From: Lingula anatina
Taxonomy: Eukaryota; Animalia; Brachiopoda
Length of the DNA: 64,000 bases
Direction: 5' to 3'
NCBI GenBank assembly: GCA_051362555.1
Contig: CM120644.1
Span: forward strand, 5,092,954 to 5,156,953
In this document: positions 6,801-47,200 of the stretch, piece by piece
How the letters are laid out: every line of letters begins with the position of its first letter
Numbering within the stretch: position 1 is the stretch's first letter
Notes under the pieces: generated by a model
What the model was told of the DNA's origin: nothing
The model's input: the letters and a program-made list of their open reading frames with translations, nothing else
Database searches by the model: none
Made by a program: the position numbers and the translations under genes

Positions 6801-7320
6801 ATTTACTTTGAAACACTATTAATTGACTACGCCTTAGGAGTATTTGCTGACTAATGAAGTTCAAAAAAGAAAATATTCTTTTTTCTTTTTTTTTTTGTAA
6901 ATTGGATCCTACACTACCAATCTCGAAACCCTGAGTCACGTAATGAGGGTCATTGACAGATTATGTGTTTTTATTTGATGCACTAGACATCAAATATTTT
7001 TGTTACACCAGCAGACATACCAGCATCAGACATGGTTAATAGTGATGGAAATCAGACCGCATCCAAAAACGTTTGTCGCGGGATAGTTCATAAGAACCCG
7101 TGTAATGGCAATCACTAATATAAAGATTTATTTCAGCATGAGAAGAGAGTACTAAAATATTAGATCTTCGATCAGAATACGCTAAATGTTCACTTAACAT
7201 AGCAAACAAACTCACATTTCACTCATGTCAGGGTGTCTTCATATACGGATACATGTATATATGGATACATACAGCCATCATATAATATTAGAAAAATAAA
7301 GCTTTGTAAACGACTGCGTT

Positions 7321-7365
<45 letters not shown>

Positions 7366-10300
7366 AAGAGAGAGATGGGGGGTCAGCAAGGTTACATCGT
7401 TCACGCCAATTCAGTTTATTCACCCTAAATGACTTTGTAAGTATACAGCTGTCTTTATTTTCTCCACAACCAGTGGCCAGGGCCCAGGATTCTTGCCCAG
7501 ATAAAGACTCGAAACTAGCACAATGGAGACCGGGAGACATTCCACACACTGATGTCACCATCGCCAATGGCAACCTATATCTGCTGGACCAATCAGCAAC
7601 AGTAAAAAGCATAACAGTTCAGGATGGAGGTGGGTCCACTGGAGCTTGTACGACACGTGCTTTCAACTCCTGACAAGCATTTAAAAAATAATAGTCGAAA
7701 TCGTCGTTTAGAGTTAAATATATGAAATAGTGCATCAAAATATATTCTATTGCCGTCTGATTTGGTATTACTTAACTAATTTATTACTTAACTTATTTAA
7801 CCATAAGCTTTATGCTTTATCAATCTAAACACTAATATATCAAATTTGATAAAAACGAAAGTTTTGTTTTCCGGGTATTGCATTCACACCAGTCCCATCA
7901 GTAATATGCTAGGTTATTGTAAATTATGGGAAAAAATCCATTATATTCGACAATGAACAATCAATTAACGGCCAAGTGAATTATGAAATATTTTACTATC
8001 CCTCCCAGGTAAACTAGTGATCAAAGACGGCGTGGCCCCGATCATCGTGAAAACAAAACACATTCTTATCGAGGACGGTGGAGAGATGCACATTGGAAGT
8101 CCTGGTTGTAGGTAAGGTTTTAATGACTCCACTACTAGAAGTGTCACCCCCTAAATCAGAGTAATCAAAGTAGGCAGATCTTGGGTAGTCACTACTTGTG
8201 ACCAATGAGTATAAAACCGCTGTACCATGCAATTTTATTGTTGGTCTTTTGTGTAATTTGATGTTAATAACATGATAACAGGAGCATATCATTCCACAGT
8301 CATATATCTCCCTCAAAGTATTGGTTCAGTAGGGGTGTCACATCTGTTGTCCAGTGTGTGTATAAATACTATGTGTACCCTGTATTTATATACATCTTTA
8401 CAAATTGCAAGCTTTATATAGCACGAAATGAAGACAATTAAATTCACATTAGAATATGAGGCAATACCTGTAGAACGAAGTGGCTTGAGCCCCCTTTACA
8501 CCTTGGTCGGGGTCCTTTCTGCGTCCCTTAGAGTAAAAAAGTAATACTTTGCGTACCGACAACTGGCCGGTCATTGAGTATTCATTCTGCAACCAAAGCG
8601 ATGCTGGTGCCTCGTTTTTACGACCACAGCGATGCCAGTTTCATGGTCGCACAAAGGACACAGAAAGGACGCCGTTCATTGTTAAGGGGAGTTAACACAC
8701 ACACACACACACACATATATAATGCTTTTTTGGTGGCTTTTGAACAGGTACCAAGGAAAGGTAACCATCATCCTCCAAGGCAAGTCAACTGACTCCGGTG
8801 AGAATCCAGATTTCGGCAGGAAGTTTATTGGTGTCAGTAAAGGTGGTACCTTGGAAATTCACGGCAAGACAAAAACAGCTTGGACCTTTCTGGAAGGGCA
8901 CCTCAAAGGTAAGGGATATGCGTAGGTCACATGTATGAAAATAAAATGACGCACATATAGAGGGTCTGGCATCGTGTGTTTAATAAGCCCGAAAACTTCC
9001 AGAAAATAACAACTCGTTTGAATAAAGGTCTTACTAAATCACAGATACGCACGCTCGGTTTAAATTTTACCTTGGAAAAACTGGTATTGTTTTATATAAT
9101 TTTTTTTTGCACATAACACTTATATCATACGTGATAAGACATTTTATCATTGACGACATTGCGGTAAAAAGCCTTATTTCGCTATACAAAATACTATTGG
9201 TGATAAATGTTACACAGCCTTATACTTTTTAATATCATTAATTTTAAATAGTGACTAATTTGTAGGGCCACTTGAAGAAGGAGCCCAAATTGAAGACTCC
9301 ATGCAGCGCGGGTTAAACGTGCGTGTTATAGATAAGGCCACGGGCAATATCACTGCCCGGGAACGATTTGACACGTACGGCGACGAGGAGGCCTCAAAGC
9401 GACTGATTGATTTCATCACAGAACAGAAAGGTAAGACTCTTTTCATGGTCTTAATTACCATCATGCGCCCTGCTTTATCATGACGTTGGGATCAACCCCC
9501 CTTCCCCATATCCCCTGAGATCTGTCTTTAGTAATTCTCGGCATATCTGTCGCCATTCTATGTCCCATCCAATATGTCCCGTTCGCTTTCTACATTTTTT
9601 CCTCGTTGTCTTCCTATCCTTCTTTTTCCTTCTAACTTTCCGGCTATATAATTTGAATCAAAATAGGGGGCCTATTGGTGGTGCTTTGTTTGTAAAAAAT
9701 AAGATAAAGAGCGAGGATAGATATCTCAAACGGAGAATTTTACATGTAATAGCAGAATTTGCACATTTACCAGACGTGTACAATGTATATTATCTGAACG
9801 TAGATGGAGCCATAATTACAATAGCAGTGTTTGACGAGGCGTCTAAGAGGCTTTACGATGAAGCTGAAACATTGTTGACCAATATGGGAAGCGGAGAGGT
9901 AACAAAGATCGGCTTTCGGTAAGTTTTTTTAGTAAAAAAATGATAATAATAAAAAATAATGCTGAATCTTATTTATTTCTTTTAATCAAAAGATTCCGAG
10001 AGGCCTAGAATAATCGAACGCACTGTGATTATGTGAACACTGATCAGCAGGCCAAATCTGAAATAAGGTTAAAACGAACACGATTTTAACGTTAGGCCAT
10101 CTGGTAGATTGTTTGGTCTGGGTGGTTACTGATGCAACTGTTTATTACGCCAAATACTTCAGAAAACTCTGCAATGCATGTGTAACTTTATACCAAAGTG
10201 TATGGCTACGCATATTTGTATTTGCTTCCAAATTCATGGTTTTAAAAGAGAGATCATTAAAATGATACAGTGAAGTAGGAAGAACGAAAAGCGCTCTGAT

Positions 10301-13300
10301 GGTCCTTTTTTTGTGATGCATTTGTTAACAAGGCTTCGTCCTGGTCACATATATCGTTCCGTCTACCGCTATCCCGTGCATTCCTCCTTTTTTCACAAAC
10401 ACCGACTTACGCTGTCCTTTATAAATAATTATAACATTGCACATGAGGGCAGAACAGGTAGAACAAACTAAACATGATATTGTTTTTGTCAGACAGGTCG
10501 AAAACAACCCGTTGGAGATTTGTGTAGTAGACTAGCCTCTAATAATAATAATTAAAAAAGCAGTTGATATGTTCATAAATGGCTTTTAAGTACATATTTT
10601 TTTGGATAATGTCTTTTTTTTTAAAAAAATTAATTTTTTTTGTATGGTTCTGTTTTGATATTTGGTTTATTCGTTCGGCATTCTGAGAACTTTTGGGCCA
10701 TATAAAATAATTGTTTATATTACATAACCCAAACGCCATAATACTATTTAAATGACGTTTTACTTCACTTAAGGCACCCATGGGCGTTCATTGCTGTTAA
10801 AGGATCTTCGTCAGAAACCGTTGAAGAACGAATAAAATACATAAGTAAGTGCATATTATCATTAATTCTTTCTAAATTACTATATGACGCGAAAAATATT
10901 TTCCATGTTGTTGCCTTGTCTGTTTTGGGAAGTTGGGATTAATTGTATTTTATTTTTCAGACAAAATGAACATATTCAAAATCTCACTGGGTTTTAAACT
11001 GTACGCATGTAAACTAACTCGCCCCATTAATTTATACAGGGCGAAGTTAACAAATTTCGTTGTTCAGACAGATATATTCTTTTAAGACGTTTTGGATTAT
11101 ATTTAAGACACAGAGACAACCCACTACGCCACGGCTGAAAAAGTTTTCGCCAATGACAGGGGTCAATTCCGTGTCTACGTGAAAAGCGGATGGGACGGTG
11201 AGCTGCCTTTATTTTCCGTTCAACATTATGAGTCGATCCTATTCGATACTAAAATGTTACTGCTGATATGCAGTATGTGTTTTATAGTCCTGAATTTCGA
11301 TATTGGATCGTGCTCTGAATACACATATGGGATTGTTATTATCTTATGTATTCCTTTTTCATGTTTTAATTTCTTTTACGCCAACATATTATGCACATGT
11401 ATTAATATTTTGTCCTTCGTACGCTTGGTACATGCCTTCAATGATTTGTTTTCAGTATTTTAATGTCCGTTTAGCTCTCTGATATACATACTGGTGAAAA
11501 CACAGAGTTATGAAAAATATTGATACCAGTAGTAATAAGGCGGTGCATTGTTTGTGTCACACAGGAACAAAAGGATGGGCAAGCTCTGCAATCGAGCTGA
11601 CTGACGTAACAGAAGGATACGTGATCACTCTCGCAGATGACGTCAGCAGTTGGGATGAAGGAGATCGTATAGTAATCAGTAGTACCGATTTTTCCATGTA
11701 TCAGGCGGAAGAATTTCTTATTGGAAAATGTGAAAGTTGTAACCGTAATCAAGTCAATATCATGGGTAAGCTTTTACCTGTTAGTGCGTATAATGACTAT
11801 AATAAAGATGCCATGATTCGGTGCAGCAACTTTACTATTTCATGAGATAATTGTCATGCTCCGGATAAATACTGTTCGTGATCGTCGTCTTTCGTAAAGC
11901 CTAGGTCCCAACCGAACGTATGGGCTGCTACGTGTGCCACAGTGGTCTACGGGCAAAAAATGGGGAAAACGTGGGAGTTCGTGAGTGAGGAGCACGTCCA
12001 TCGTGCGACTTTTGGAGGACGCAAACAGCACGTAGTAACTTTTCGACATGATCAACAGCCGCTATACGTGCGATCTAGCTACGTCCTAGCCGGACGCAAG
12101 GAACCAAAAAAACTGTGCGTCCAAAACGTAGTTGGGACCTGGGCTTTAATGTGAAATTGTAAAAAAACACTCTTAAGAAGAGAGCAATCGTCAAATCTTA
12201 TGCAATATCCAAGATAAATATAGATACGTAATGTTTCTATATTTGGGTTTAAGAGATTGAAACCGTGGTAACCTTAATTATTTTCAGGTCCAGTCAAGTA
12301 TTTTCATTTTGGCGGGTCATCGTACGGCGTGGACATGCGCGCTGAGGTTGGACTCCTCAGCAGAAATATCCTGATTAAGGGAGAAATGGAGCCAAGCTGT
12401 TATGGGGAAAATTTCTGCCAGTTCTTCGACTACGACACATTTGGTGGTCACTTGAGGGTAAATTAAAATTATTCGTTATACCTCGCCTTTTTCGTGATTA
12501 TTAAATTTGTAATTGGGAATATTTCGATCAATGCCGTATCTCCGTCCATGTTACTCAAAGGTAGGCCTACTTGCATCTTACTATAGTCGTGTTTTGATTC
12601 TTAAAATTTATTTTCAATCGGAATGGCTTTTAATTTAAGCGGACTAGTTATATGTCGGACTTGAACATTTTAATGGAGTAGAATCTTGAAGCTAATAAAT
12701 ATAGTAATATTTTACGGGGACTTTCTTGTTTCCAGGTCCTCAAAGGTTTCAAATCAGTCCATCTCTCAGGAATAGAGGTGTTTAATATGGGCCAGCAGAT
12801 TCTTGGCAGGTATCCCATCCATTTCCACATCTGTGGTGACGTCGACGAACTCGGTGGATACACCAATCCTACTTGGGTTAAAGACCTGTCCATCCATCAC
12901 TGCTTCAGTCGCTGTGTCACAATCCATGCTACAAATGGTTTATTGGTACGTAATTCTTTAAGATTATTTATGTTTCACAAGTGGCTGTATTGGGTAAACT
13001 CCTTTGCCCTTAAATTTCAATAAATTAAAAGCATACGAGGTTAAAGGTAAATATTTTCTTATGAAAAAGACGAATGAGCGTAATTACCATCATAGTATTA
13101 CAAGTGAATCTCCTAGGTTCACAGTGTCGTTGGTTATGATACACTGGGACATTGCTTCTTCCTGGAGGACGGCAATGAACAAAGGAATACTCTGGACCAT
13201 AACCTGGGTCTCCTCACCAAACCAGGCACCCTCCTCCCGTCTGATAGGGACACTAACATGTGTGAGAATATGTTGGACAACGTGATCCCAGGATATAAAC

Positions 13301-16300
13301 CTTCATCTGGTGAATGCAAGTAAGCCACTTTTGAGTGTCAGATCTTCCAGGACCGTCTTTCTTTCTTTCTTTCTTTCGATCTCTATCTTTCTGTCTGTTT
13401 CTTTCGGGTCGGTAATGATTTCAGTCACCTCTATATCTCGATATAAAAGTACAGCATGAGTTTAAAACTGCAATAGTAATAAAAAATGGAACCACAAAGA
13501 TCCTTAATTTTTTATTGTTTTCAGCGGGGTCTCCACATTCTGGATAGCTCATCCGAACAACACGTTCACCAACAATGCAGCTGCGGGCTCAGATGTAAGT
13601 GCAACCGAAAACAGTTCCACTGGATTTGGCCACAAATATGTGCTGCCAACCTTAAAGATGTGAATACAGTTTTGTTTAAAGAATGCGACTGTGATGTGAA
13701 ATTTTATTATCTCGTCATAGTGAAATCTGAAATCCATTCCATATAAAAGCACTTGTTTTTTTGTTATTCCCAGAGCACAGCTTACTGGTTTGCGTTCTAC
13801 AGAGAACCAACGGGTCCATCTGCTGGAACCCTCCCCGAACGCCACGGCGAGAGGACGGCAATTAAGAAGTTTTATAACAACAGAGCCCATTCTAATCCCA
13901 GAAGGGTGAGTGATCATTTTTGGCCAGCCTTATTTTACTGGGACAATTGAAATAGTATACAGGGGCGGGTCCAGGTTTTTTTTTAATGGCGGGTGGGGTG
14001 TCCGCGGATGCGAAGCCGAACGATGCGAAGCCGAACGTCCCCCTCCCCCTTGATGTGGGGTCCGTGGCCTGCTGTTCCCGTGACTTCCCGATTGCAGGGC
14101 CAGGTCGTTGCTGTGATGGAATGACATTCGTTATCTGGGACTCGACCTCATGACTTCCCGTTATCATGGCTTTAGATTTTCTTGCAGCCAACGATAGCGC
14201 TGTACTTGACGACCCGCCAACCTAATATACGTTTTACTACTTATAGTAATAAAATGCACTTATAAGAAATCATATCTAGCAAAAAAATACTGCATAAAAC
14301 ATTCTAGCATTTGAACCCGCATACAAGGGTATAGCTGTGTTTAAGACAGCGGAATTACCACGTCGTTGACAATTAGGTCGTACATTGAATGGAAACTTTC
14401 TACCTTGTCACGCAGAGGGCCAGTTTGGTTGTGCATGTTTACATCTGCATTTATTATCGATAACCCGGGTGCAGTACAGAAGTTCACGATGTACACGAGG
14501 CCTTGTTTGAGAAACCGACACGGATAATTTCGTTTTGTGCTGAGATTAAGTTTAATTTCACGTATGACTTTAAAGAGCACAATGGGTGGTTTGGGTTTAA
14601 GCAATCCCCTATAAGAAGAGAGAATCATTCAAAACGTTCAAACGCGTACAAGTAATTGTGACGATGCCAATTTTGAGAAAAACATAATTCTGCAAAGAAG
14701 ATTCTCTTTTTGTCTGCTGAACGCGATATACAAGTGGTAAGACATGGTAAGATCAAGTATTTGAAGGGGGTCAGTGTTTTATACGAATGGCAGGTCTCAG
14801 ATTTGAAGCCCACCCTCAAGCCCCTTGTGGTACGCTGAAGGGCCCCAGAATATTTTGGTTTTTTTCTGAAGAAAAAACGGTGCCATTTGGAACGGTTAAG
14901 AACTATAAATCAGCTAGTTAAAACTCTAATTTTAAGAGGGAAATATTAGTGTGATTTTTTTTAGAAACCGAAGGGGGGGGAGGGGGGGGAGGGCATAAAA
15001 CGGTTAGTTCGGTTCACATCTCTTTATTCCCGATGCATGTTTTTCTAAATGTACATCAAAGCAAATAAAATGGTGAAATCTGACAAACTCAACGAAAGGA
15101 GGAGACACTTGCATCCCTCTCTTACGTGAATGGGACTAGTCAAGCACCTTCTCACAGACATTTGTGTTGTCCATACGACAGACATTTGTTAGCAGTGGTT
15201 GTGCCCTCAATTATCCAGCACGTATTTTTGCCAGAATTCCATTCCCTGTTGTAACGGGCTATATGAACGTGCGTGCCTGTGGAACATGACCTTGACCCTG
15301 GTGCGTGGTACATGACGTAATACTCTTTGTCCAGAATGCCACTTTTTCTGAGGCGATCCCACGCAGTTTTAACTCCAACGCCCTTGACCAAGATGTCTGC
15401 TGCTTGACCTTTCTTATGCTGAAATAATAATAATAATAATAATAATAGAGTCTGGAGTAAGGCCTCGGCGTTGTGCATAAATTTGACAATTGTTATCAAC
15501 CCCTATTTCTTTCCTGACATTTATTTCAACACTATTGCTGAAATGCGGTGGGTAATGCCAAATATGACTTTTTCGAAGGCATCAGTTCCAAATGAAGAAC
15601 ATATGGGACAAAATCATCATAAATATTATACAAATACTAGCACATTTAAGAAGTTTCTGTTGTCGTATTAAGCTAGATACAAGCGATTCCAGTTGTACAA
15701 ATAATGTCTCTTACATAGGGATCAAAACCACTTCGTCTTCCGCTCGTGACGGTCACCGTGGTTTTGAAAAAGTTTGCGATCTCTTGAAGCTTCATCTTAA
15801 GGGCCACGCTGTCCACCTTTTGGTACCCGTATTTTACTGTCCCACTGAGCGGCTCTGCAAGCACAGAATTGTTATACTGTAACAGGTATAGACTTAGGTT
15901 GGGTCCGCGTGGGAGCTATGAGAAAGTCAAAATAATGATGAAAATGAAATGAATAATTCATGCTTCAAATTTAGCAAGAGCTGATCATTGATGCACTGTG
16001 AAACAGTAATGTTTTATAATTGTAACGAAACTTGACCATGACACAATGCATATATGATTTTTAAATGGATACTTTGCTTTTGTAATTGAATATAGAACGT
16101 CCAAAACTAGCTATAATTTCTAAAACTTTTCAACCATGATATTGACTTGATATCAGTGTGGCAATTTTATTCTTGAAAAAAGCATTTTTCAAGAAATAAA
16201 ATCTCCCTTCGTTACTTACTGACGCAACTTGCGTCTTTCTTTAAAGCAACCCATCCACTTCCCGAGCCAGTTCTCCTCAAGGTACTGTGTCGCCAACACC

Positions 16301-18332
16301 GGCCGTCAGAAGTTCGATAGGTGGCAGCAACACACAAACGATTAGTTGCGCATGCGTCGGAACATCTTCCTTCAGACCCTGTTATGAAGTTGTCAATGTC
16401 GCGTCCTTTGACGTAGAATGCATTTGCACGCCGCGTCATCCGACATATTCCTAAAACCAACAAACAGACAAAGCTGATATGTCATTTATATGTTGGGGGA
16501 AAGAATCTAATTTGGTTTTAAAAGAAAGCCTACTGTGCATTTGGTTGATGATTAAGTCTCCGAGAATTCCGAAAACGCACGCTATCGTATGTGTTTAATA
16601 CTGGAATCACGCGTACGGTTATTTGACATGGCATTTTATTTTCGAGAAATAATATTATTTTCGAAATGCAGCGTCTTATAAATGCATGTGCTTGTAGGAG
16701 CGGACTGTAACATTCTCCTGACATCTTGTCCAGCATTTCCTCTCATGAAATTGTCTAGTGCAAGACACGAGACACTTTTATTTACTACAGTTAAAACCAT
16801 TTAAAACATTTATTTAAAACAATTAAAAGAAGTTCTACAAAACATTTTGTCACACAATGAGCATTTGACCGTCAGGAAACAGAATGAAATTTAATTTGGA
16901 AACATTTCCCATACTCTTGAAGGTTGGTAAAAAAAGTTGAAAAAATTACAATTTAAAAAGATTTTTTAGGTTCGAAATTAAGAGTTTTAAAACGGGATTA
17001 TACATCCTTAATTTGTCTGTGGTTTTGGATATAACACGCTTTAATTGGTGTTAAAAGAAATACTGCTGAAATGTCGTGGATAGTTATTAAATTAAAATTA
17101 TTTGATTATCTTTATTTTTCTTTACTTGCTAATAATTAAGGACCTAACGCACATCATATCATTTTGTTCCTCAAACTTAACACTAACAATTCTATTAGCA
17201 TGTTTTCAAAAGTTAATTTTTTACAGTGCAATTCAACAAACCATAAAGTTTATCATATAATGAAATATACTTTACCATTGACATTGACGGCTGCAAGGCC
17301 CAATATCAAAATTGTGACGAAGATTGATCTCATGGCGACAATTCCCTCGGTTTCTGTCAATACCGATGACATGAAAATATTAGTCGAGACAGCGTGTTTT
17401 ATACAAAAATTCGGCCCACGTCTCAATTTAAAGTCACTTAGTGCAATGTAACCGCACATTACGGACAAACACGATAATTTTCTTACGACCTAACCCAAAT
17501 GTGTCATAATCGGGGGTAAAGGATATTAAACATTGTCAGAGTGGTTACAATGACATTAATCTTCTGTTTAAAACAGTGAAATAATTATATATATAGCATA
17601 TACATATAATTATTTATATTTACTGGTAAATGATTTTATGTTTTATACTAATGTTAGGTTAAGAGGTACATGTAAATACACCCCATAAATGCCAACATCC
17701 TCCACATATCCTTCCTCCGAACAAGGGCAATGTATTTTATGGCTGCACTACGGCGATGAAATGGTTATAGACACGGTTAACAACATGAGAGGATGTGTCA
17801 AGATAAAATAAGAAAGTGGGATGTCCTGCCAAAATAGGTTCGTCTGCTGACCATGATATGGGCGCGTTGTGGTGATATTACCATTAAAGACTCTTGGTAG
17901 GTCAAAGACAAAGACGTCCATCAACGTTTGTTTTATTATTTCTAGAACGGTGCTATACATGAAGTTATATTCCGATTATAATGACAAGCAAAGTTCAAAT
18001 TCTATTTCTATTTGAATGATATAAATCAATTTTGGTATATCTGCAAAGGGGTAGTGAAAAACGAGGAGTGACATGAGAATGACTTTAATGTTACCCCGCA
18101 ACGTTGGGGTTCGTTCAAAAAGCCAGTTCCTCGCTAGAACAAACGTCATCTACATGGAAATTCTACATTACAAGCCGCTATATCTCTCGAAACGTGTTTT
18201 TTTAATTTAGAATAATTATTTTACTGTCAGTTAATTTTCTATCCCCAGTTGCGATGAAACAGGCCATGTTAATTCACTGAAGGTTGCAGGATCAATATCA
18301 CTCATGTAATGAAATTACGTTTCGAAGTTTTA

Positions 18333-18363
<31 letters not shown>

Positions 18364-21300
18364 TTATTATTTAAAAAACCGAAGTGGTCTGTGGTCCGTT
18401 TCGAGATTGCACGTCTACGCAGTCAAAAATGATAGCATTTTTAGGACTATACGTAAACAAGTTAAACGGAATAAGACAACAGTATACACGTTAATCAGTG
18501 CCCCAATAACATTAACATCATAAATTCAAATGCCCTGTCCCTCAAGGGCTTATCTCTGACATACAGGGGCACAGTTTGAAATGAAATCCCAGGTCTTTAG
18601 TTAAAAGGAATTATTTTGACGCATGCGTATTGCAGGCCGCACTGATGCTGGATGACGGGGTAAAAATCACACAGTCAACCGAGAGTGACCCGGCCGAATA
18701 TTTGTCAATCCAGGCATCGGCAAGGTAAGGGAAACATAAAGCAACACTGCACCTGCACTCTGACAAATCTGGGAGGAAAAGGCACGTACATGTATATGAT
18801 AAGCACCAATTAAGTTAATCCAATTAACTTATCCCTCCTTCGGGTAACATCCATTGCGTGTGCCCTTCCCAGAGTATCTTTGGTACGCCACTGAAAATGG
18901 CTGTTATTAAAATATGCCAATCAGACCCTTAAGTGTTCCTGCCTTTGTTATCATGAATATTACCTTTCACTTTTAACAGACTTTTATAAAGTGTGCATCT
19001 TCACAAAAGAAATATTTATTTTACATTTGAAAACTCTGTCAGGGGGCTGCTTCTCCAATATTTAGATTTAAGATTATTCACAACTTCTTTAAAAATGGTA
19101 ACATGGTATTTAACTTATTGACTTCAAAGTGAATGGATATACCATTAAAGACCGAAAGATTTTGTCCTGTAATGAAAGGGATCTGGATGTGACGATTACG
19201 TGCAATTGCATGATACTGGCAACTAACCGTGGTTTTACTTTTAACTTTTTAAGTTTCCTTTTCTTTTTTTTTAGACACGCTCCCCACGTGGACGCTGACA
19301 TCGATAAGCCCAGGGCCACCTCGTTAATAGAGCGCTTCACGGCGTTCAAGGCAGCAAACTGGGGGATATGGGCACGTGGTGGTGATATTACCATTAAAGA
19401 CTCTTGGTATGTCAAAGACAAAGACGTCCTTCAACGTTTGTTTTATTATTTCTAGAACGGTCTTATGCATAGTTATCTTCCGATTATAATGGTACTACAT
19501 ACTTAAACTCTGACCGATGCATTTAATGTGTTTACACGTTTAAATATTTGCAAGTAATTGTGTTTATAGAAAAAACCTAGAATTTAAAAAAGTTATGTTT
19601 AGGGGAATATTGAATACATAGAACCGGTGTTACCCGGTATGTATTTCCAAATGTAGAAAAACTTTCAAAATGACATGGTTTTCCAAATGAATTACAGGTT
19701 TGCTGACGTCACGGAAGGTATCATTTTAGCAAGGTAATTACCATTCGATGGAAAATAAAACGACCTATAGAATGCTCACATTATTTTGATTCGTTCCGTC
19801 ACCTGATACATTAGAGTGAAATGGCTCTGTAGTACGAAGGATCGAAGGTGCCTGAAATTTGTTAATAACTTTAAAAATAATCCTGTTTGGAATGCATTCC
19901 GTTTGTATATTGAACTTGCTTTCCTTGGTCCTGGTCTTTGTTACGTATATGTAGTTACTAGATAACGAGTGTAAGCTAACTATAGAAGAGGCAGGTTGTG
20001 ACTGGCATCTTCTTTAAACATATTATCGCTGCACTATTTAATGTAGATAGAACTTAATTTTTGTAAATGACCGCTGTAAAGTAGCAGATTGTCTTCCATG
20101 ATAGCGAGTAAGCTTCCCCTTCATTTGTGCAGGTAAGCCTCGCTCTAGATTTTGACCCACTTAGGTCAGGGTAACACTAACCATTATAACTACATGTAAA
20201 TGATATTCGATCAGTTTTGAGTCTGTTTCTATAATGGGTTTTACCATACAGTGAAGGAAGAACCCCATTTGACCCCGGCAGTCATCAGGAAGTCATAAAT
20301 ACCGTCTTTGTCGGCGAAAGTGAGAACAGAGGAACGAAAAATCTGGGAACAGACAATCCAAACTGGGCAGAAGGCTTTGACGGAAAGATGCGAAATTTTC
20401 CAAACAAAAAGTGAGTCGCTGCATAATAGGCCTAGGCCTATTCCCCTTGGTAAGGCACCTTAATTTGCTCTGGCAAAATAATAAAATCTTATGCCCATGC
20501 AATTTCACCTTGTATGTATGGCGCGAAGAAACCATGACAGGTCAATTACTCTCGTTTTGCGTTTATCACTTATAAGACACTCCTCATTATATGGGCAACG
20601 TGGGTATTCAGATACATTGTACCTATATCGCAATTTCCAGAGTAGAACCCCGGAGGGGCATGGTTGTTTACGACGGTCCCATCTCCGTAGAAAGATGCCA
20701 GTTTAAGCGCTACGTGAGCCAGTACAACAAAGCCACAGCAGCCATTGGGTTCCTCCTCGAAAACAAGTTCCAGATTGCTCCAACAAGCAGGTTCCTTGAG
20801 GCATCGTTTGACGACGTGGTAACTACGGATTCTCAGTTTATCTTCTCGTCTGAAATACCCGTATTAGTGTCTAATGTAGCACATGGTTGTGCTGTATGTC
20901 TAGGATGACATACAGCAGAGGACGTAATATTCTGAAAACAAGGCAATGCAAATTGCAACTCAGCATCAAATATCTGAAGTGGGAAGTTCTATTCGTGTCG
21001 TAAAATCGGTTTATCTGTACCAGCTGTAAATATACGGCGGTAGGTGTGCGTTCGAAGTGGTTTATGCCTTGAAGCAGTATTCCTTGATCACGACCCATTG
21101 TCTGACTTAAATTACTAATAAGTGATATGTTCGTTTTTTTTCAGACTCGCCGTGCATGGCTTCATCGCATCCCAACTGGCTATATTTCCACTAAACCAGA
21201 TGGAGATGGCGACAAAACTCAGATTTTCCACGACGCGGACGGCTCCGTTAGTGGTTATACAGACTCTTACGTCATTCGAGCAGACAACTATCTTCTCCGC

Positions 21301-23238
21301 CATGATGGGTGTGTAGAAAAACCCGAATGGAATTGCGTAGTCTGTAAAGGATCATATTCACAGGTTGGTTGGTGTGAAGAACTCATATTGCTTTTTCTGA
21401 GATTGAAAGCTGTAAAATACATGTTGCGTTATTTACTTAGTGCCAATGACCAAGAACTAACCATTTTCACTCTACGCATTATGATGATAAAACTGTGCAC
21501 GGTATATGGAATAGCATTATGTATACTGCCAGTAAAATGTTTATTTTAAATAAAGAATACTTCAATAATTTCAGTTATTTGAAATAAATGCAGTGAATTA
21601 GAAATACATATACATGCATTTCTGAAGCCGACTTTTGTTTAAATGATAATTTGATGATCTCTGTGTTTTTAGATGTGGGTAATACCGATAAGCGATAACC
21701 TTATAATGAGCATGACTCGTACGGACCACCCAGACAAGCCTCTTGAATTGGAGAATCAATCAGGAGGCACCAGCGCTAGTAAATGGAAAAAATATCAGCC
21801 GTCCATGTTAATAGGACAAACCTACATCATCCACTGGAGCGATACTGCGCCTGAAACCATTTCTCTTCACCTTATGAATTTCAACAGGTGGTCTATATTC
21901 TACTAACTCCATCCAGGATGTTATGTATTCACTTCTGTCTGTCTGTTTGTTTGTCATCAGTCTAATTCAAAACGCCATGGGCGGAATTTGCTGATATTTT
22001 CAGAATAGGTCAGAAATGAGGTAGCATACTTTTTAAACGTGATTAGGGTTAAGTGGTGATCCGTGGTCCCGTTCGACATCCATGAATGGGCCCAAACTCG
22101 AGAATTCTGAAAATAGAGGTTTTCACCATAGAGAGATAGGGCCAATAGCCTTGTTCAATGGAGGTGCTCTTAGCTACCATAATTTATCAGATTACTGAGG
22201 CACGCACCATCCACTGATATATTTTCTAGTTTTCCTGGTAAATTATATATCCCCGATATATGGTGATCAAATATAATACAAACTTCAACTACGTATACGT
22301 GTTCGCAATGTTTTATTTTTTGCTGGTACCATTATCTGACTAAGGTAATAGCGTGAATATCAAAAAGAGGGCTTTAAGTAACCAAGGCATAAACAAATGG
22401 TAATTACCGTGTCGAAAACCATGGCAAAACACCTGAAATTTTAGATTATACAATGCTTACTCGAAAACCACTCAGTGCCTGTAAAGTTTTCATTTACGTT
22501 TCGTTTAATTCCTGTATCCTCATTTTTCCAGGAACGACTATATCATACTTGGACTCTGCTACCCCCTTGGGACAACATTTGCTGAGATCGAATACAGAGC
22601 CAGATGGACAAGCGGCACCCAAAAGATCCTGACAGAAGTCCAGTCGTTGGATAAAGTTAAAAATGGCAATGGTGACGTATATTACTGGGATTCAGAAGTT
22701 GGGTGAGTGTTTGGTATAATGCGCCATACAGTTCATCTAGGCTATTGGAGACTGGGGATGGATCTGAATTTGAAGCCCATTGGTATTAATCTATAGAACA
22801 ATCCATTCATTTATCGAGGGTTGCACTAAATCTGAAGCTCAAATCTATCGTTTACTTCAGCAGAGTTACAATAGTAGCTACAATCCGAAAAAAGTCCTTC
22901 CTAGAGTGATGTCGGAAATAACAAAAGATAGATCAGTACATTACAGTATATATATCATTAGACAGGTGCACGTACACACCAGTACAAGATAAAGAAGTAA
23001 AGGGGGTGTAGAAAGACAAAAAGATACATACATATGTATGTTACGCGTAATATTTATTTCCAGACTATTGTTCCTTAAAATCATTGCGCAATACGACAGG
23101 GAAGGCTGGAACTACTGCTCCAACATGGGATGTGAGGTGGTCACGATCGATGCCACTGTACCAGATGGCGCCACCAGCGTCTGCCCAGGAGCCTATCCCA
23201 AGTACCAAGAAGAGCCTGTCAACATTCCGATTGCCTGA
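3801..23238 (+). CDS. CEMIP: CEMIP/TMEM2 (CEMIP2)-like secreted protein, paralog 1 (signal peptide, G8 domain, GG domain, parallel beta-helix region), ~1085 aa
   Basis: Exons with GT-AG ends and consistent phase: 3801-3837, 7474-7629, 8009-8111, 8748-8908, 9266-9430, 9804-9918, 10774-10844, 11108-11197, 11565-11765, 12288-12457, 12736-12945, 13117-13319, 13525-13594, 13774-13905, 18636-18724, 19275-19406, 19698-19733, 20252-20410, 20641-20818, 21145-21363, 21673-21887, 22532-22702, 23064-23238 (3258 nt). Family motifs: [90 protein letters not shown]-terminus MCVIIICFLTFSMARA-QD. Exon 1 is the least certain. Confidence 0.92.
4797..6496 (+). mobile_element. 5'-truncated non-LTR retrotransposon (CR1/L2-like group) RT pseudogene in intron 1 of CEMIP paralog 1
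   Basis: One frame with RT motifs (KAIGPDQIP, LRPISLT, LDFAKAFD, GVPQGTKLGP, KFVND for YADD, IRSVLEYACPVW). In-frame stops at 5017, 5206 and 5653; ORF ends 6348; 3' end is AATAAA plus an (ATT)n tail. The 5' boundary is approximate. Confidence 0.9.
8130..8356. mobile_element. Small TIR element (MITE), family shared with 40485-40715
   Basis: Ends AGAAGTGTCACCCC ... GGGGTGTCACATCTGTTGTCCAGTG; internal sequence clearly homologous to the 40485-40715 copy. Confidence 0.7.
11895..12148. mobile_element. MITE with ~16-bp terminal inverted repeats
   Basis: TA-AAGCCTAGGTCCCAAC ... GTTGGGACCTGGGCTT-TA; GC-rich island inside an AT-rich intron. Confidence 0.65.
15152..17333 (-). CDS. Nested secreted protein: signal peptide + PAN/apple domain + peptidase M15-like (Zn D-Ala-D-Ala carboxypeptidase/endolysin-type) domain, ~231 aa
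   Basis: Minus-strand exons 17333-17276 (MRSIFVTILILGLAAVNVNG, context GTCGCCATG), 16450-16220 (6-Cys PAN pattern), 15854-15715 (..VTVTSGRRSGFDPY) and 15418-15152 (HKKGQAADI...HVHIARY...stop). All GT-AG, phases 1/1/0, 696 nt with no stop. Motifs: TSGxR, H-x6-D and HxH. Confidence 0.82.
17397..17403 (-). promoter_or_regulatory. Candidate TATA box of the nested PAN-M15 gene
   Basis: TATAAAA on the minus strand ~64 nt upstream of the ATG at 17333. Confidence 0.5.
17855..17983 (+). pseudogene. Duplicated fragment of CEMIP paralog 1 exon 16 3' end plus adjacent intron
   Basis: Near-copy of 19365-19491 (GATATGGGC.CGT..GGTGATATTACCATTAAAGACTCTTGGTA.GTCAAAGACAAAGACGTCC...CGATTATAATG). Confidence 0.85.
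21902..22230 (+). mobile_element. Degenerate Helentron/DINE-like non-autonomous element related to 29813-30046
   Basis: Shares GTTATGT.TTCACT..TGTCTGTCTGTTTGTTTGTCATCA, TTTTCAG.A..GTCAGAA, GTGGTGATCCG and the terminal TTTTCTAGTT. Confidence 0.55.
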
Positions 23239-24555: not shown

Positions 24556-26215
24556 CAGGGTTACCACTTAATATGGAATATTATTTTTGGCGAGTAAATT
24601 TTCTACAAAATATTTTTTTCTCTCTAACTACTTTACATCCAAATCTGAGGTGTCACTCCCTGAGTAGCCAGGTGTGTTACCTAATTACCACACAACTCTC
24701 GAAACAATTGATGCATGCAGTTGCATGTTCTGTGGTCAGAAATGTGAGGGGTGGTCTTTTCGGCAATTTCTGCCCTTGTATAAACACGCATGGGTTTGGT
24801 CAATCTTTGGAGTGTGTTTAGAGAAGCAACAAAGGGATCGCACTGAAACTTGACAGGTACCTTATTGAAGATATGGTTCGACAGCTAAGCAACGCAGCTT
24901 ACTATGGGACTCTTGCTCTCGGAGAAAATGTCCAGAAACGGACAGCCATTGCCAGGTAATTCAACATTTATCAAGAACCGTTTGTAAAGTCCTCCAAAGA
25001 AATGCTGCAACAGGGGCACCTACTCCAATACCTCGACCAGGGTGTCCGCGTATCACACCAAGAAGAAAGGATCGCCTTCTCCTTAGAGGACGCCGTGCTG
25101 GTCGTACAAAGGCAACCAGTGTCCTCAGAAAAGAGAGGCAGAATGTCATTCAAACGCCCGTTTCAAGGTCAATCGTGAACAAGAGATTACTGCAAGCCGT
25201 TTATTTTGCACGAAGGCCGGTAGGGAAACCACTGTTAACAGCAGGTCATATACAGCGACGTCTGCAATGGGCTGGGGACCACGTGCGTTTGCAGCCAAAA
25301 CACTGGAATCACGTCGTTTTCAGTAATGAGGCCACATATGGATCTTTTAGGGTTGATGGTCGAATCCGTGTCCACCGACGTGTACGAGGGACATAAAACG
25401 ATGATTGTGTACTACCTAGGGTGCAAGCAGGGGGTTGTAACGTCTCTGTTTGAGGAGAATTTCATGTCGGTGCCCAGAACCAGTTGGTTTTTCTAAGAGG
25501 CAACCTCAGCCAGGATTCCTACAGAGACATTCTACAGCAAACGATGCTTCGATTGGTAAGAGCCATCTTCAGGAACAACTTTGTGTACCAAGACGACTGC
25601 GCAACCCCACATCGAGGCCGCAGAATCACTGTTTTTCTTCAAAACCAATGGGTTCAGCAAATGCCCTGGCCTGCAAACTCTCCAGATATGAACCCAATTG
25701 AAAATCTTTGGGCAAAAGTAACTCACAGAATTAATAGCTATGGTCATCGGCCGGTAAATAGTGATGAACTGTGACAGGCAAATATCACTGCGTGGAATGA
25801 TATCCCCATCCAAACTCTAAAAAACGTGTTACAGGGTATGTCATGTAGGATGAGGGCGCTGCAAGCGGCTGCTGGATGTCATACCCGCAATTACTGGCTT
25901 TTCATGATTTACTGTAGTGAGTTCTTTGACTGTGTTACATATCACTGTCCGGAGGCTATCATTTACTTTAATATCTTAGCTTAAAGTTAATACTGACATT
26001 AAACTGTTGATATGGTTTTCTGGGGGTGTTCCTTTCTTTTGAATGGCATCTTATGTCAGATTTGATATCATTGACCAAAATATCTCACAACAGAAGACTG
26101 GATGTTTTTATTACTCAGTGGCTTACTTTTTTAATGACTCAAGCCAAAAAAAAAAATTAATCAGTACTCAAAAATAACAATGATCAAAAATATTCCATAT
26201 TAAGTAGCAACCCTG
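24556..26215 (+). mobile_element. Tc1/mariner DNA transposon (DD34E), full length but with a defective transposase
   Basis: TIRs CAGGGTTACCACTTAATATGGAATA / TATTCCATATTAAGTAGCAACCCTG and TA target duplication on both sides. Transposase fragments ~24873-25900 (WNHVVFSNE, YQDDCATPH, WPANSPDMNPIENLW; 34 residues between D and E) with stops and frameshifts. Confidence 0.93.
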
Positions 26216-42500: not shown

Positions 42501-42916
42501 CTTTAAATGGAGATTCACGGCACATGATGATGTTATCATGAAGATCGCATGATGGCATTCCCATGTTAAGAAAGTAATCACTGAAATTAAGCATTCGATT
42601 ACGTAAGTGTGTGTGACAATTAAAGTTCATTGATCGACACTCACAGCGGATTTATAGAGCGCTAAACAACATTAAAAATGTTCATGTGTCATATTGAGTA
42701 CGAATGTATCTCTGTGTGCCTTTGTCTAAAACGGCCTCAGATGGATTTCTGTGTGAAAAATGTTTGTACTATTACGTTTTATGGTCGTAATGTAGATAGA
42801 TTTTGACAAACCCAGAGGTAAATCCCAATTCTTACATACGCGGTATTGTTCAATCGGATAAATAAAACGCATCTGCTTTAGAATAGTTTTATACTGGATA
42901 GAAAGATACCATGATC

Positions 42917-42956
<40 letters not shown>

Positions 42957-44209
42957 TCCTTCCAGGTCCAGTCAAGTACCTTCATTTTGGCGGGTCATCG
43001 TACGGCGTGGACATGCGTGCTGAGGTTGGACTCCTCAGCAGAAATATCCTGATTAAGGGAGAAATGGAAGCAAGCTGTTATGGAGACAATTTCTGCCAGT
43101 TCTTTGATTTTGACACTTTTGGCGGGCATTTGAAGGTAACGTATACTACATTTATTACTCAGGTAACATCGTATGGTTCCAAATTGCCCTCCGATTTTAC
43201 TGTGGCATTACAAATACTAATACTTTTAGAAAATGTTTTTAATCTGAGATTTAGATATAGAAAATATAGAAAATGATAATGCTACAACAATTTGTACCGA
43301 TGATCATATGTTTGTTTAAAAATGAATGTCCCTAAAACTGACTCGCTAATAGCTAGATTATAAGAAAAATGGATTGAAAACATCTTGCTTTTTCCAAAAA
43401 AAAAAAAAAAAAAAAAAAATCTCTCAAAGCCCAAGTGGAGTGCACTTGGTGCATTCATCAGACAAAATAACTTAGCATGGAACAATGAATATCTGGGAGT
43501 AAATCGGACATTTTTTTAATTTAATGAAGTTTAAATTTTCCCAGGTCGTCAAAGGTTTCAAATCAGTCCATCTGTCAGGAATAGAAGTGTTTAATATGGG
43601 TCAGCAGATCCTTGGAAGTTATCCAATCCATTTCCACATCTGTGGTGACGTCGACGAACTCGGTGGATACACCAATCCTACTTGGGTTAAAGACCTGTCC
43701 ATCCATCACTGCTTCAGTCGTTGTGTCACCATCCATGCTACAAATGGATTGTTGGTGGGTATTGTCTTTTGTACTTAAGGAAACGGCGCTAAAACAACTG
43801 TGCTTTAACATGTGTGATTGTGCACTTTGAAATTTCAATTATTATCATTCGATTTATACTAATTATGCGGATTACTAATCTCCACTTATTGACATATTTT
43901 GTATCTTAGGTTCAAAATGTCGTCGGATACGATACACTTGGTCATTGCTTTTTCCTGGAGGACGGTAATGAACAAAGGAATACTCTGGACCATAACTTGG
44001 GTCTCCTCACCAAACCAGGCACCCTCCTCCCGTCTGATAGGGACAGCGACATGTGTAAAGCTATAGTGGACAGAGTTATCCCGGGGTATACACCTTCAGT
44101 TGATGCCTGCAAGTAAGTGCTGGTACACGCATCAGGGCGCTCTTTCACCTATGTGTCTCCACAACCCTCCCTACATCCCTGTCTTCCCCTACATCTCTCT
44201 TCCTCTCCA

Positions 44210-44243
<34 letters not shown>

Positions 44244-47200
44244 TGGTGATTAAGAACCAGATGTCATGTGGTACATTGACGTCATAGTAGAAATTCTGTT
44301 GTCATATTGCAGTGGAGTTAGCACATTCTGGCTTACCCACCCGAACAATACCCTCACCAACAATGCAGCCGGTGGCTCTGAGGTATGTGTAACTGAAAAC
44401 ATATCAACGGTAGATACTTGACAACATCTTAATTTTCATTATAGAAATTTACAAGAAATTTAGAAATCTTTATAAACTTCAAAATAATTTTACATATGAC
44501 GTAGTAAAAGCGAAAACTATGTTTTACTTGCCAACAGACGTCTCTCCACAAAAATTAATAAAAAAAGTGAAAGATTAATTAAATTTTCACATGCCGTCCA
44601 TTTTTTATCATGCCACATTCATATTTATATCACAGCTTGACATATCCACACGGGCGTTCAATATTATAATTAAACCCCTCATTTTCCATCAGAAAAGACA
44701 CAGTGGAAAGAGGCGTCGTTAAGGGCGAATAAATGGAAAAAAGAATTCATAAGTTTATGACGATGCAATACCAGTTTCCTTTTTATCCACCTATGCAAAC
44801 CGTGGCAACACCTTCCAATGCAGACATATAAATCAGAAAAGATTTCTTCAGCTGTTTTATAAGGATAAAGTCATTTTTCTTCAATCCCTGATAAAGATGC
44901 TCTGATAGACAATGAAATGTTGGAGGTAAACATTATTAGGATCCAGCTGTTAATTGAAGAAAACATTTTTCTTGGACATATAAATAACTTTCCAGGGTGT
45001 ATGCTACTGGTTTATATTCCCAGAAGAACCCACCGGTCCCTCTGTAGGCACCCTACCCCCGGGTCACAGCCCCCACAGTCCCGTCAAGAAGTTCTACAAC
45101 AACAGGGCGCACTCTAGCGTGAAAAGGGTGAGTATTATATATATTGGCTTGCGATAATAATACCTGTTTTGTAACTCAGTGGAACTATCTGTGCTTCGAT
45201 CAGGGCAATAGTCACTCTTTTATCATAACGTGCCACTAGCTCTGTTAGATTTAACTTAATTGTAGCCTAGATTTTTCAGTTTTAATATCATTTTTGTAAA
45301 AGTGGTAGCCATCTGTGTTTTGCAGTATTCCTTGTTGTTGTCCAAGGGACTGAAACTAACGCCATCTACCGAAGATGATCCTGCGGAATATTTATCCCTG
45401 ACGGGCAACCGGTAAAGGCATTTGTTTTGTCTCTGACATTCTTATTCCAATGCGGAAAAATAATACTGTTACAGATGTACTAACCTGCAGTACGATGACG
45501 CTAAGAAAGTAAGTCGTGACTCTTTTGGCGTTAGATTAACAATTTTAGACTGCTAGTTGAATATCGACCGAGCAGAAACCTGCGTAAATTTTTAGCCCAG
45601 TGGCGTATCATAAAATGTTATTTTTTTAGTATTTTACAAAACATCGTTATGGTAAATGAATGAAAATTAATAACAAATAAATGGACTCAGTCACTGAAAT
45701 ATTTTTATTATACCAACGATATTGATTGTTAGTTATAACAATTAAAATTGTTCTGAAATCTATTTAGCCAATAATCCAACTTTCCTTTATCCGGTATCAG
45801 TTTTCAGTAATCTAATTAGGCCCCCAAACGTCAAGACTTATTGTGAAGTCTTACCTGTACATGTAGGTCCCAGCATCTAGGACGCAAAGTGTAAACCGCC
45901 CTAAGCTCCCTTTACATACATATAAAGGGGTTTCTTTTCCATTCCAGACACGCTCCCCACGTGGACGCTGACCTTGAAAAGCCAAGGTCACCATCAGTGA
46001 TAGAACGGTACACGGTGTTTAAGACCAAAAGTAGGGGTATATGGGGGCGTGGCGGAGATATTTATGTCAAAAACTCAAGGTATTTCATTCGGAGCGTTTT
46101 AGTTCCTTTCAATAGTTTTTGCCCATTGATATACTAAGCTTAATTGAAGAAAAAGTAAATTAACTGTGCTTCAATAGTTTGTGACTTTCCGTTTTGATTT
46201 AGTTAGAAACGTGAGCTGCACGTGTATAATCTGCACATATATACTGTGGAGCTGATACATGTATTATCAGTGGCGTTGATATCAGCGTACCTTTTTCAAA
46301 ATTAGATTAATGGCACACAATTGAAGCAATCTATACTCCATACTGGCATGTTCTTTCAGGTTTGCAGATCTATTGAATGCTATAACTTTCGCGAGGTAAG
46401 CAGCCGATAGTATCTCTATCTATCAGAATATGTTTTTTTAAACAAATTTTTACAATTTTCTTACAGTTTACAAATTAAGCATTTCGTTTGATAAAAAAAG
46501 TAAAGTTAAGAGAAAACAGTAAATGGTATTATTAAAACTTTTGTAAAGATTTCTCCTTTCCTCCAATGTTAAAGTTGACTTTGCGTCTCAGCCTTTTGTT
46601 GATAAATATTTGACCTATACCCGATCTCACATGGTCGTGGCCAGAACACACTGAAAGTGTTGACTATCACTTCCAGTTCAGGCAGAACACCATACGACCC
46701 AGGTAGTCATCAGGAGGTCATAGACAGTATCTTTGTCGGTGAAAGTGAAAACAGAGGAACCCAAATGCAGAATGATAACGCCCAGTATTGGGCGGCCGGC
46801 TTTGACGGAAAGATGCGAAGTTTTCCGAATGACCCGTAAGTGAAATATGGTGGTTAAAATTTCTTTTTTTTCATTGTTTGGTTTTGATTGAGCGTCTGTG
46901 AGTGCGTTGTTATCCTCGTGAGTGTTAAATATACTGCCAAAATAACAAAGCTGTCGCACAATGCGAAACATTACTTTAATGGAAAAAGCTGAAATATGCA
47001 AAATTTGGAACTTTTGAAAATTGTGGTACACAATGCACAATCGATGATTACTGGCGAAACGCGAGCGCGCGCTGTGGGCACGCCTTTTCTGGCGTGGACT
47101 GACGTATGTGTGACACACTTCCGTCGTTCGATCGATTATGTCCGTAGGTTGTGAGAGCGTGCATGGAAAGGCACTTGCTCCTTCATTGCCTGCGCCGTGC

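Follow-up and report, generated by a model that had tools for sequence, protein, structure and literature searches.

The window that we have analyzed, a 64-kb stretch of the Lingula anatina genome, contains a CEMIP/TMEM2-like gene on the plus strand, which matches the CEMIP beta-helix with an E value of 5.5e-30. One of its introns (13906..18635, 4730 nt, GT..AG) includes a second gene, with four exons in antisense orientation: The nesting claimed in the original prediction is thus found. The host intron junction (13906/18635) is placed by its GT/AG ends and the open frame, not by reads, and should be taken as predicted. A tandem CEMIP-like paralogue on the same strand has a homologous intron of 198 nt (45128..45325), without a nested gene. 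No terminal repeats flank the nested gene in the window, except for AT microsatellites. No tRNA gene is present anywhere in the 64-kb window, which therefore lacks the tRNA/attP signature described for the rusticalin-like genes of Ciona.

The nested gene is the copy of LOC106170540 in the window. All four minus-strand exons have AG/GT ends, as expected for GT-AG introns. When joined, they give 696 nt with a single open frame of 231 amino acids and one stop at its end: The four ORF pieces do splice in frame, as had been proposed. Exon 1 (17276..17333) contains the ATG and a predicted signal peptide (residues 1–19), and ends in phase 1. Exon 2 (16220..16450) codes for a predicted PAN/apple domain with six cysteines and has a phase-1 intron on either side, which makes it a symmetrical cassette. 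Exon 3 (15715..15854) codes for the first half of an M15-like domain, with S134-G135-x-R137 (R137 codon at 15735–15733). Three acceptors would preserve its open frame (15854, 15836, and 15782); RNA reads use 15854. Exon 4 (15152..15418) codes for H144 (15418–15416), D151 (15397–15395), the subfamily residue H181 (15307–15305), H193 (15271–15269), H195 (15265–15263), four cysteines, and the stop. Intron 3 (15419..15714, phase 0) abuts the codon of H144, the predicted first zinc-ligand histidine; the motif is split by an intron, as the original prediction had noticed. A candidate polyadenylation signal, AATAAA, is found on the same strand about 120 nt past the stop (15023..15028), and RNA read depth declines nearby, between 15172 and 14991.

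The RefSeq protein of this locus, XP_013405884, has an identical splice. It matches 228 of our 231 residues (3 differ) and has 13 additional residues at its N-terminus, since the model starts 13 codons upstream, at 17372. Lingula copies of the gene have been counted among database proteins.

Eight RNA-seq runs (four, plus four more), chosen by species label, have been compared with the locus. The intron-1 joint is found in 23 reads of run X7 and 14 of run X8, and the intron-2 joint in 6, 9, and 19 reads of runs X7, X8, and X9. A transcript joining 15715 to 15418 had been predicted, and loose read ends at 15715–15718 do match the start of exon 4 (17/17, 8/9, and 20/24 letters, three reads each). 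The intron-3 joint itself is absent from the joint listing; the read mapping skips an ATT repeat at 15414–15454. The exons have little or no signal in four of the eight runs. Most reads are only 90–95% identical to the window; their source must be divergent individuals or close paralogues, and not provably this allele. All three junctions are backed by RNA reads of close variants. None of the 35 read differences listed alters a motif residue, and where they fall in the codons of S134 and H195 they leave the amino acid unchanged. An apparent stop among these differences is an artefact: Two changes in one codon had been scored separately.

Hydropathy reaches a peak of 2.96 at residues 4–14, with no hydrophobic window further on, which suggests that the protein is secreted. 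The mature protein has a pI of 9.8. The six cysteines of the PAN/apple domain that had been noticed are all present in exon 2 and its first codon (22, 49, 53, 59, 71, and 95). The domain matches PAN_4 (E 7e-6, 26.4 bits against a cut-off of 27) and PAN_1 (E 6e-4), narrowly missing the Pfam curated cut-off in each case, and paralogue P0009 clears the PAN_1 cut-off with 52 bits. This part of the structure model has low confidence, and no PAN fold appears among the fold matches listed, which the catalytic domain filled.

The zinc and catalytic motif which the original prediction had recognized is complete: SGxR, H144-x6-D151, and H193-x-H195. The last two elements define the zinc site of clan MD/LAS (H-x6-D and H-x-H, according to the available text of PMC6027127). 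The arginine of SGxR, upstream of the first histidine, has a transition-state role (available text of PMC11667670). G135, R137, H144, and D151 are kept in all 71 aligned rows, H195 in 69, H193 in 67, and H181 in 66. A match to the M15 profile had also been expected, and here the result is mixed. Peptidase_M15_3 (PF08291) is matched by 33 of the 42 aligned family members, and many relatives pass its cut-off. On the other hand, the Lingula domains remain below it: The best of five has an E value of 0.0021, and the P0001 domain has 14.1 bits, under the gathering cut-off of 23.2. Exons 3 and 4 taken singly have no Pfam match, and NCBIfam gives none. PHROG 894, an endolysin family, is matched with an E value of 8e-6. 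Sequence searches of the PDB give only chance matches (best E 0.11 for P0001, 1 for A2, and 0.08 for P0009).

A single-sequence fold had a pLDDT of 37 and was left out of the fold searches. A later model has a pLDDT above 85 across every ten-residue block of the catalytic domain. Its best solved match is 1LBU, a Zn DD-peptidase (Z 7.5, rmsd 3.5, 101 aligned), and its best seven among 48,161 chains all have the Hedgehog/DD-peptidase fold, with middling Z. The best viral structures matched are phage M15A-type peptidases (E 4.6e-6), and those in the Atlas are M15_2/M15_3 proteins (TM 0.65–0.68). The catalytic domain, as modelled, has the Hedgehog/DD-peptidase (clan MD/LAS) fold, which agrees with the M15/LAS type proposed.

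A profile search of 1.84 billion proteins gives 64 matches at E<=1e-3. Two of them, P0032 and P0047, are repeat artefacts. Among the 62 matches scanned, 45 have Peptidase_M15_3, 16 have PG_binding_1 and/or LysM, and 3 have SH3_3: the annelid member and two metagenome members. Bacterial-type M15_3 proteins are found with E values down to 4e-12. Word-based homologue searches detect Lingula proteins only. Searches of phages and plasmids (tblastn) give only non-significant matches, many of them annotated as M15 (best E 0.07), scans of viral contigs give no relative, and a metagenome scan with P0019 gives no locus. The bacterial-type rows have an organism title at only two loci, one relative is located in a gene-dense Acidobacteria MAG, and, among 201 genomes from a single phylum, the subfamily was found in only one. 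These comparisons support bacterial-type M15_3 proteins, rather than Hedgehog, as the closest non-animal relatives on sequence grounds, in line with the original prediction.

Four proteins were left out before tree building: the two repeat artefacts, a partial sequence (P0002), and a fused model (P0007). The first careful tree dropped 27 of the 71 rows (long branches, near-duplicates, and distant outgroups). The second dropped 36 of the 71 and added L009. None of the trees includes Hedgehog sequences. A Cys-rich clade of predicted secreted proteins is supported in both careful trees (96/92 and 99/99). Besides the Lingula forms (PAN, 2xPAN, Cys-repeat, and the PAN-less P0008, which has no front module), it takes in SH3b-type forms of a chiton and an annelid, as well as metagenome proteins. 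LOC106163617 is a PAN-less Lingula paralogue. The acquisition is therefore not special to the Lingula gene, since chiton, annelid, and metagenome proteins have it in common. A bacterial sister group is supported (97/90) in the first careful tree, but unresolved in the second. In a quick tree rooted on four distant M15 proteins, the clade lies inside the bacterial-type rows. The long-branched row P0066 adjoins the Lingula group in that tree.

We suggest that a bacterial M15_3-like lytic domain would have been transferred once, long ago, near the lophotrochozoan base, to a eukaryote from which brachiopods, chitons, and annelids, at least, are descended. Disulfides and introns may have been gained afterwards, and the front module would then have been swapped at the phase-1 intron: SH3b, rusticalin-type Cys repeats, PAN, 2xPAN, or none. 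Several independent transfers, or a far older eukaryotic gene lost from most lineages, are a somewhat unlikely alternative, which concerns timing and not function. In its favour, long-branched metagenome proteins fall within the same clade, as sisters of the Lingula PAN forms in the first careful tree (96/90), and M15_3 fusions are also found in Trichoplax and fungi (available part of the PMC7379824 supplement). Nevertheless, the AU test does not reject a clade made up of animals alone (p 0.19), and relative L009 has two intron positions in common with the Lingula gene, which are thus shared by both animal-type subgroups. One aligns with the phase-1 acceptor of exon 3, and the other matches intron 3 in position and phase (phase 0, before the zinc histidine). 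Together with the single clade in both careful trees, these introns argue against independent transfers. The acquisition is not recent.

Our main reading, to which we give a probability of about two in three, is that the gene codes for a secreted zinc peptidase of probable bacterial ancestry, which cuts peptide bonds in bacterial peptidoglycan, with PAN as a likely binding arm. By comparison with clan MD enzymes, H144, D151, and H195 would hold Zn2+, R137 would stabilize the transition state, and H193, the first histidine of HxH, would activate water, possibly together with the subfamily-specific H181. Hydrolysis of peptidoglycan peptides is suggested by the domain partners of the relatives. 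As for the bond cut, we can only guess: An endopeptidase acting on stem or cross-link peptides is our preference, since wall-binding and muralytic domains are fusion partners of many bacterial-type relatives. The likely role would be to kill or digest bacteria in a filter feeder.

A domain of bacterial descent might also have lost the wall polymer as its target. It could trim soluble muropeptides or D-amino-acid peptides, damping immune sensing, bind peptidoglycan for recognition, or cut host matrix. The front modules are freely variable, with none in P0008, PAN is to our knowledge not a known peptidoglycan binder, and a disulfide-rich C-terminal extension near the catalytic domain is particular to the Cys-rich clade. 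Shh works as a ligand despite having the same zinc motif (available text of PMC6027127). Even so, the brachiopod, chiton, annelid, and metagenome members have lost none of the catalytic and zinc residues, and the SH3_3 domain of the annelid and two metagenome members is wall-binding. We consider such a change of target unlikely.

Vertical descent from an animal Hedge domain (Hedgehog/Hedgling), with a role in signalling or matrix processing, is very improbable. As expected for such an origin, this is an animal gene with introns and a signal peptide. The Hedgehog N domains (ShhN/IhhN/DhhN) have the same H-x6-D and H-x-H zinc motif (PMC6027127, available text), and they match the model with Z 7.0–7.4, at a lower rmsd than 1LBU; all these Z values are below 8. 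Hedgehog and M15A are tied in the model comparison, at the fold level only. The family profile gives E 0.14 against Shh and 1.4 against 1LBU, neither of them significant. Sequence families do separate them: HH_signal (PF01085) is not listed at E<=10 for P0001–P0003 or the five Lingula domains, it is listed for none of the 42 aligned members (33 of which have M15_3), and neither HH_signal nor M15_4 is among the 20 families listed for them at E<=10. HH_signal is also absent from the families listed for the profile matches (for five of the proteins, the first five families). In addition, SGxR is invariant in our family, while Shh has TEGWD, and this sets it apart from the Hedgehog N-terminal domain and bacHh (Roelink 2018; PMC6027127, available text). 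Only 36 residues follow HxH, with no Hint/Hog or cadherin region. Bacterial contamination or a chance joining of ORF pieces is practically negligible: Only the weak direct Pfam score favours it. The gene has spliceosomal introns, reads that span its splices, an agreeing RefSeq model, and paralogues on four scaffolds, other or the same, and it is nested within an animal gene.

The main weapons of animals against peptidoglycan are generally taken to be lysozymes and amidases. If brachiopods, chitons, and annelids have a conserved, spliced family of zinc peptidases that cut stem peptides, invertebrate immunity or bacterivory would gain an enzyme class. The family supplies small, probably soluble proteins for direct assay, and it illustrates the domestication of an acquired bacterial domain, which has come to have a signal peptide, disulfides, introns common to its members, and front modules that can be exchanged. 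A full catalytic set on a Hedgehog fold in an animal is also a natural comparison for whether the zinc site of Hedgehog is catalytic. A broader proposal is tentative, a possibility that we would not favour: an ancient unrecognized eukaryotic family with a three-histidine active-site variant (H181, H193, and H195), forming a modular lophotrochozoan antibacterial system whose aiming domain (SH3b, defensin-like repeats, PAN, or 2xPAN) is exon-shuffled at one phase-1 intron. If true, animals would have another class of wall-lytic enzyme, the second next to lysozymes and amidases, with the first PAN used as a cell-wall-targeting arm, and the bacterial subfamily from which it came may stand near the Hedgehog root.

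The combination of a eukaryotic module and an acquired M15 domain in animals is already a published concept, as in the rusticalin and rusticalin-like proteins (Daugavet et al. 2019, PMC6339383, and PMC7379824, in the parts available). The original prediction knew of no described family with this architecture. This overstates its uniqueness, although we have found no report of a PAN+M15 architecture or of a Lingula M15 protein in the open-licence literature; the PAN-tipped form and the wider family appear to be undescribed. According to the available text of PMC6339383, rusticalin(-like) proteins are also secreted animal proteins, of about 230–270 aa, with a eukaryote-type N-terminal module and an acquired Hedgehog/DD-peptidase-fold domain with conserved introns inside, and their antibacterial role is likewise only a proposal. 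They differ in their front, with two beta-defensin-like Cys repeats instead of a single PAN, in their M15_4/Ply500-like domain instead of an M15_3-like one with HxH, and in their hosts: tunicates, amphioxus, coral, and Trichoplax, as opposed to brachiopod, chiton, and annelid. In the fold search with the Lingula model, Ply500 has Z 4.9 compared with 7.5 for 1LBU.

The available part of the supplement of Daugavet et al. 2020 (PMC7379824) includes three Lingula "lysozyme 1-like" proteins with Hedgehog_sig/DD-Pept_Zn-bd_sf. One row, A0A1S3KGF4 (P0011), is a Cys-repeat form from the same clade as the PAN gene. These rows were detected through their Cys repeats; we have not found the PAN, PAN-less, or SH3b forms, the bacterial sister subfamily, or the clade in that part. 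The main text does not mention Lingula.

The Streptomyces Zn D-Ala-D-Ala carboxypeptidase (1LBU, M15A), Peptidase_M15_3, and the MepK-type PF05951 share the fold, SGxR, H-x6-D, and HxH with the Lingula protein. Identity is about 20%, they have a PG-binding domain in place of PAN, the Lingula score is below the Pfam cut-off, and the Lingula protein adds the near-invariant H181 and a disulfide-rich tail. The bacterial L,D-endopeptidase VldE (PMC11667670, available text) has the LAS fold (Z 6.5, 23% identity), the arginine, and H/D/H; nothing in our data points to a multi-zinc state of the Lingula protein. VldE also has an additional histidine upstream of HxH, proposed as a base in VldE: It lies 3 residues before HxH, compared with 12 in the Lingula protein.

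The nested gene lies on the minus strand and has four exons (17333-17276, 16450-16220, 15854-15715 and 15418-15152), all with canonical splice ends. Joined, they give a single frame of 231 amino acids, with introns 1, 2 and 3 in phases 1, 1 and 0. In the hydropathy profile, strong hydrophobicity is confined to residues 1-19 and none appears later, so a soluble, secreted product is predicted; the mature protein is basic (pI 9.8). The exon-4 query found one match in 24 candidates, Lingula anatina LOC106170540, whose RefSeq model has identical splices and differs at 3 of the 231 residues; this identifies the window as DNA of a brachiopod.

Eight of nine available RNA runs were aligned to the window, with 6-30% of the reads of each run. 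Three of them (X7, X8 and X9) have reads over all four exons and near zero across the introns. The joints of introns 1 and 2 are listed in the reads. For intron 3, loose read ends at 15715-15718 match the start of exon 4 at 17/17, 8/9 and 20/24 letters, in agreement with the transcript joining 15715 to 15418 which the original prediction called for. In X4, all first mates over exons 3-4 are on the plus strand; in most stranded libraries, this indicates minus-strand RNA. X1, X2 and X6 have no reads on these exons, and X5 has a trace. Most reads are 90-95% identical to the nested gene, so what they prove is that a member of the family is expressed and spliced, not that this very allele is. The open frame, the shared RefSeq splices and the spliced reads confirm a real spliced gene.

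Direct library matches of the catalytic domain are weak: a PHROG endolysin (E 8e-6) and Peptidase_M15_3, weakly matched by all five Lingula domains (best E 0.0021). The Atlas's own model, compared with structure clusters, matches M15_2/M15_3 (TM 0.65-0.68). An AlphaFold2 model of the Lingula protein P0001 (42-row alignment) has ten-residue pLDDT means of 86-98 over residues 111-244, and of about 34-54 in the PAN part. Among 48,161 solved chains its top match is 1LBU (Z 7.5, rmsd 3.5, 101 aligned); others are ShhN (Z 7.1), fly Hh (6.9), VldE (6.5), T5 endolysin (5.5) and Ply500 (4.9). Hedgehog domains reach Z 7.4-7.0 in a second structure comparison. Since 1LBU and Hedgehog have nearly equal scores, the fold settles the superfamily and not the branch: The M15-like fold first proposed stands as a Hedgehog/DD-peptidase fold, but the fold alone gives no choice between M15 and Hedgehog.

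The motif is well conserved. G135, R137, H144 and D151 are present in all 71 aligned domains, H195 in 69, H193 in 67 and an extra histidine, H181, in 66. Judged by the strand order and the Shh sequence, H181 would lie on the strand where Shh carries E177. The SGxR of the family is replaced by TEGWD in Shh. According to PMC6027127, H-x6-D and H-x-H define the zinc site of DD-peptidases; an upstream arginine is described as the presumed transition-state stabiliser in M15 enzymes (PMC11667670).

When the five Lingula domains are combined into a profile and compared with 1.84 billion proteins, 64 match at E<=1e-3. M15_3 is found in 45 of the 62 relatives scanned, PG_binding_1 and/or LysM in 16, and some add lysozyme, SLT or GH46 domains; among the families listed, HH_signal is found in none of the 62. 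Sequence says more about the branch than fold does: most of the relatives scanned carry M15_3, and HH_signal is not among the families listed for any of them. One bacterial-type member is a LysM+PG-binding+M15 protein in a gene-dense Acidobacteria MAG. Of 201 genomes from this phylum, one contains the subfamily, so no donor can be named.

Two bacterial-type relatives, P0018 and P0025, combine LysM, a lysozyme-like/SLT domain (SLT E 9e-4 in P0025), PG_binding_1 and M15 in one chain; the lysozyme-like/SLT domain is presumably goose-lysozyme-like. A MAG titled Clostridia (L005:693-3393) shows synteny with the Acidobacteria locus L004, its label may be wrong. In the subfamily alignment, the bacterial consensus at the first histidine (slH..grAaD) is similar to Shh SLHYEGRAVD, and the best solved match of the alignment profile is Shh, at a non-significant level. 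The bacterial subfamily may be worth including in Hedgehog-origin trees.

Frame, splicing, domain order, motif and (as a model) fold are directly established for the nested gene. The protein would be secreted and would bind zinc through H144, D151 and H195; R137 and H193, perhaps with H181, would hydrolyse a peptidoglycan peptide bond. The PAN domain would act as an anchor on a glycan or protein surface. The catalytic domain is probably of bacterial origin, and a role in defence or feeding may be suggested. We give this wall-cutting activity a probability of roughly two in three. The M15 domain might instead have a derived, non-lytic use, which we consider rather unlikely. Descent from a Hedge domain is very improbable: The nested-gene protein differs from Hedgehog in both profile and architecture.

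Rusticalin-like proteins are described as secreted animal proteins with Cys repeats and a horizontally acquired Ply500-like domain, their antibacterial role being proposed only (PMC6339383). As far as described there, the nested gene resembles them in its working, without two of their defining features. M15 fusions are reported in fungi, Trichoplax and chordates (PMC7379824), in a paper whose supplement gives three Lingula proteins a Hedgehog/DD-peptidase superfamily label, including A0A1S3KGF4 (P0011, a Cys-repeat sister form). Acquired M15 is also reported in Dictyostelium (bioRxiv 2026.03.01.708701). In the open-licence literature we have found neither a PAN+M15 protein nor a description of the Cys-rich clade. 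The concept has precedent; the architecture, the subfamily and the modular family appear to be new.

Lingula contains at least seven related database genes, plus a Cys-repeat "lysozyme 1" (XP_013421539). They are LOC106170540, LOC106170530 (partial), LOC106179404/5/7 (PAN+M15), LOC106179412 (2xPAN+M15) and LOC106163617 (signal peptide+M15, without PAN). Phase-1 introns lie on both sides of the PAN exon, as read in the nested gene alone, and the PAN-less paralogue can be aligned from the exon-3 boundary onward. Together with the 2xPAN paralogue, this fits PAN being a shuffled exon cassette.

The next matches are in a chiton, Liolophura sinensis (58-Mb contig), in an annelid, Owenia fusiformis (SH3_3+M15, on a 35.8-Mb contig), and among metagenome proteins; organism names cover ten matches. 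The nested gene is real and well supported, and its family is wider than at first assumed. A careful 44-row tree unites the Cys-rich forms in one clade (96/92), whose sister group is the LysM/PG-binding proteins (97/90). A 36-row tree also has this clade (99/99), its sister group without resolution. A quick 71-row tree, rooted with four distant M15 proteins, places it within the bacterial-type rows; the AU test does not reject a clade of animals only (p 0.19).

A long-branched metagenome group (P0013, P0015-P0017, P0019, P0021-P0023, P0027) has the motif HxPGxRxCxxxEHxH, with signal-peptide-like ends in several members and SH3_3 in one.

An SH3b-type gene with introns, L009, adjoins a collagen-repeat frame. 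With splice sites predicted from sequence, two of its introns correspond to introns of the nested gene: one, in phase 1, falls at the aligned codon of intron 2, and the other, in phase 0, immediately precedes the first zinc histidine, like intron 3. Chance would seldom produce two such matches in roughly 400 possible positions, so they point to a single intron-bearing ancestor of both subgroups.

The nested gene is flanked on both sides by plus-strand exons of a gene of the CEMIP/TMEM2 type, with a CEMIP beta-helix match at E 5.5e-30. The sole frame-keeping GT-AG join with good consensus is 13905 to 18636, a predicted host intron of 4730 nt. The equivalent intron in the tandem CEMIP-like paralogue has 198 nt and no nested gene; after the tandem duplication, therefore, one paralogue either gained the nested copy or lost it. 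No sign of a functional link with the host is seen. The two tandem genes (hyaluronidase-like), at 7200-21550 and 38600-48570 on the plus strand, have an exon identity of 70-90%, and X2 contains abundant reads from related copies. Upstream of the nested gene, the 4730-nt host intron contains a 129-nt duplicate (92%) of a host exon end (17855-17983 vs 19365-19491), which may mark the rearrangement that enlarged this intron.

About five single-exon EF-hand genes, which we take to be sarcoplasmic calcium-binding-like, are found in tandem at 50388-64000 on the minus strand, with three 3.3-kb units 97-98% identical. A Gypsy-like LTR retroelement (31079-36545) has its pol spread over several frames and 188-nt terminal repeats, 98% identical (31079-31266, 36358-36545). 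Inspection by eye detected a fragmentary non-LTR reverse transcriptase and a fragmentary Tc1-like transposase at 5209-6348 and 24869-25774.
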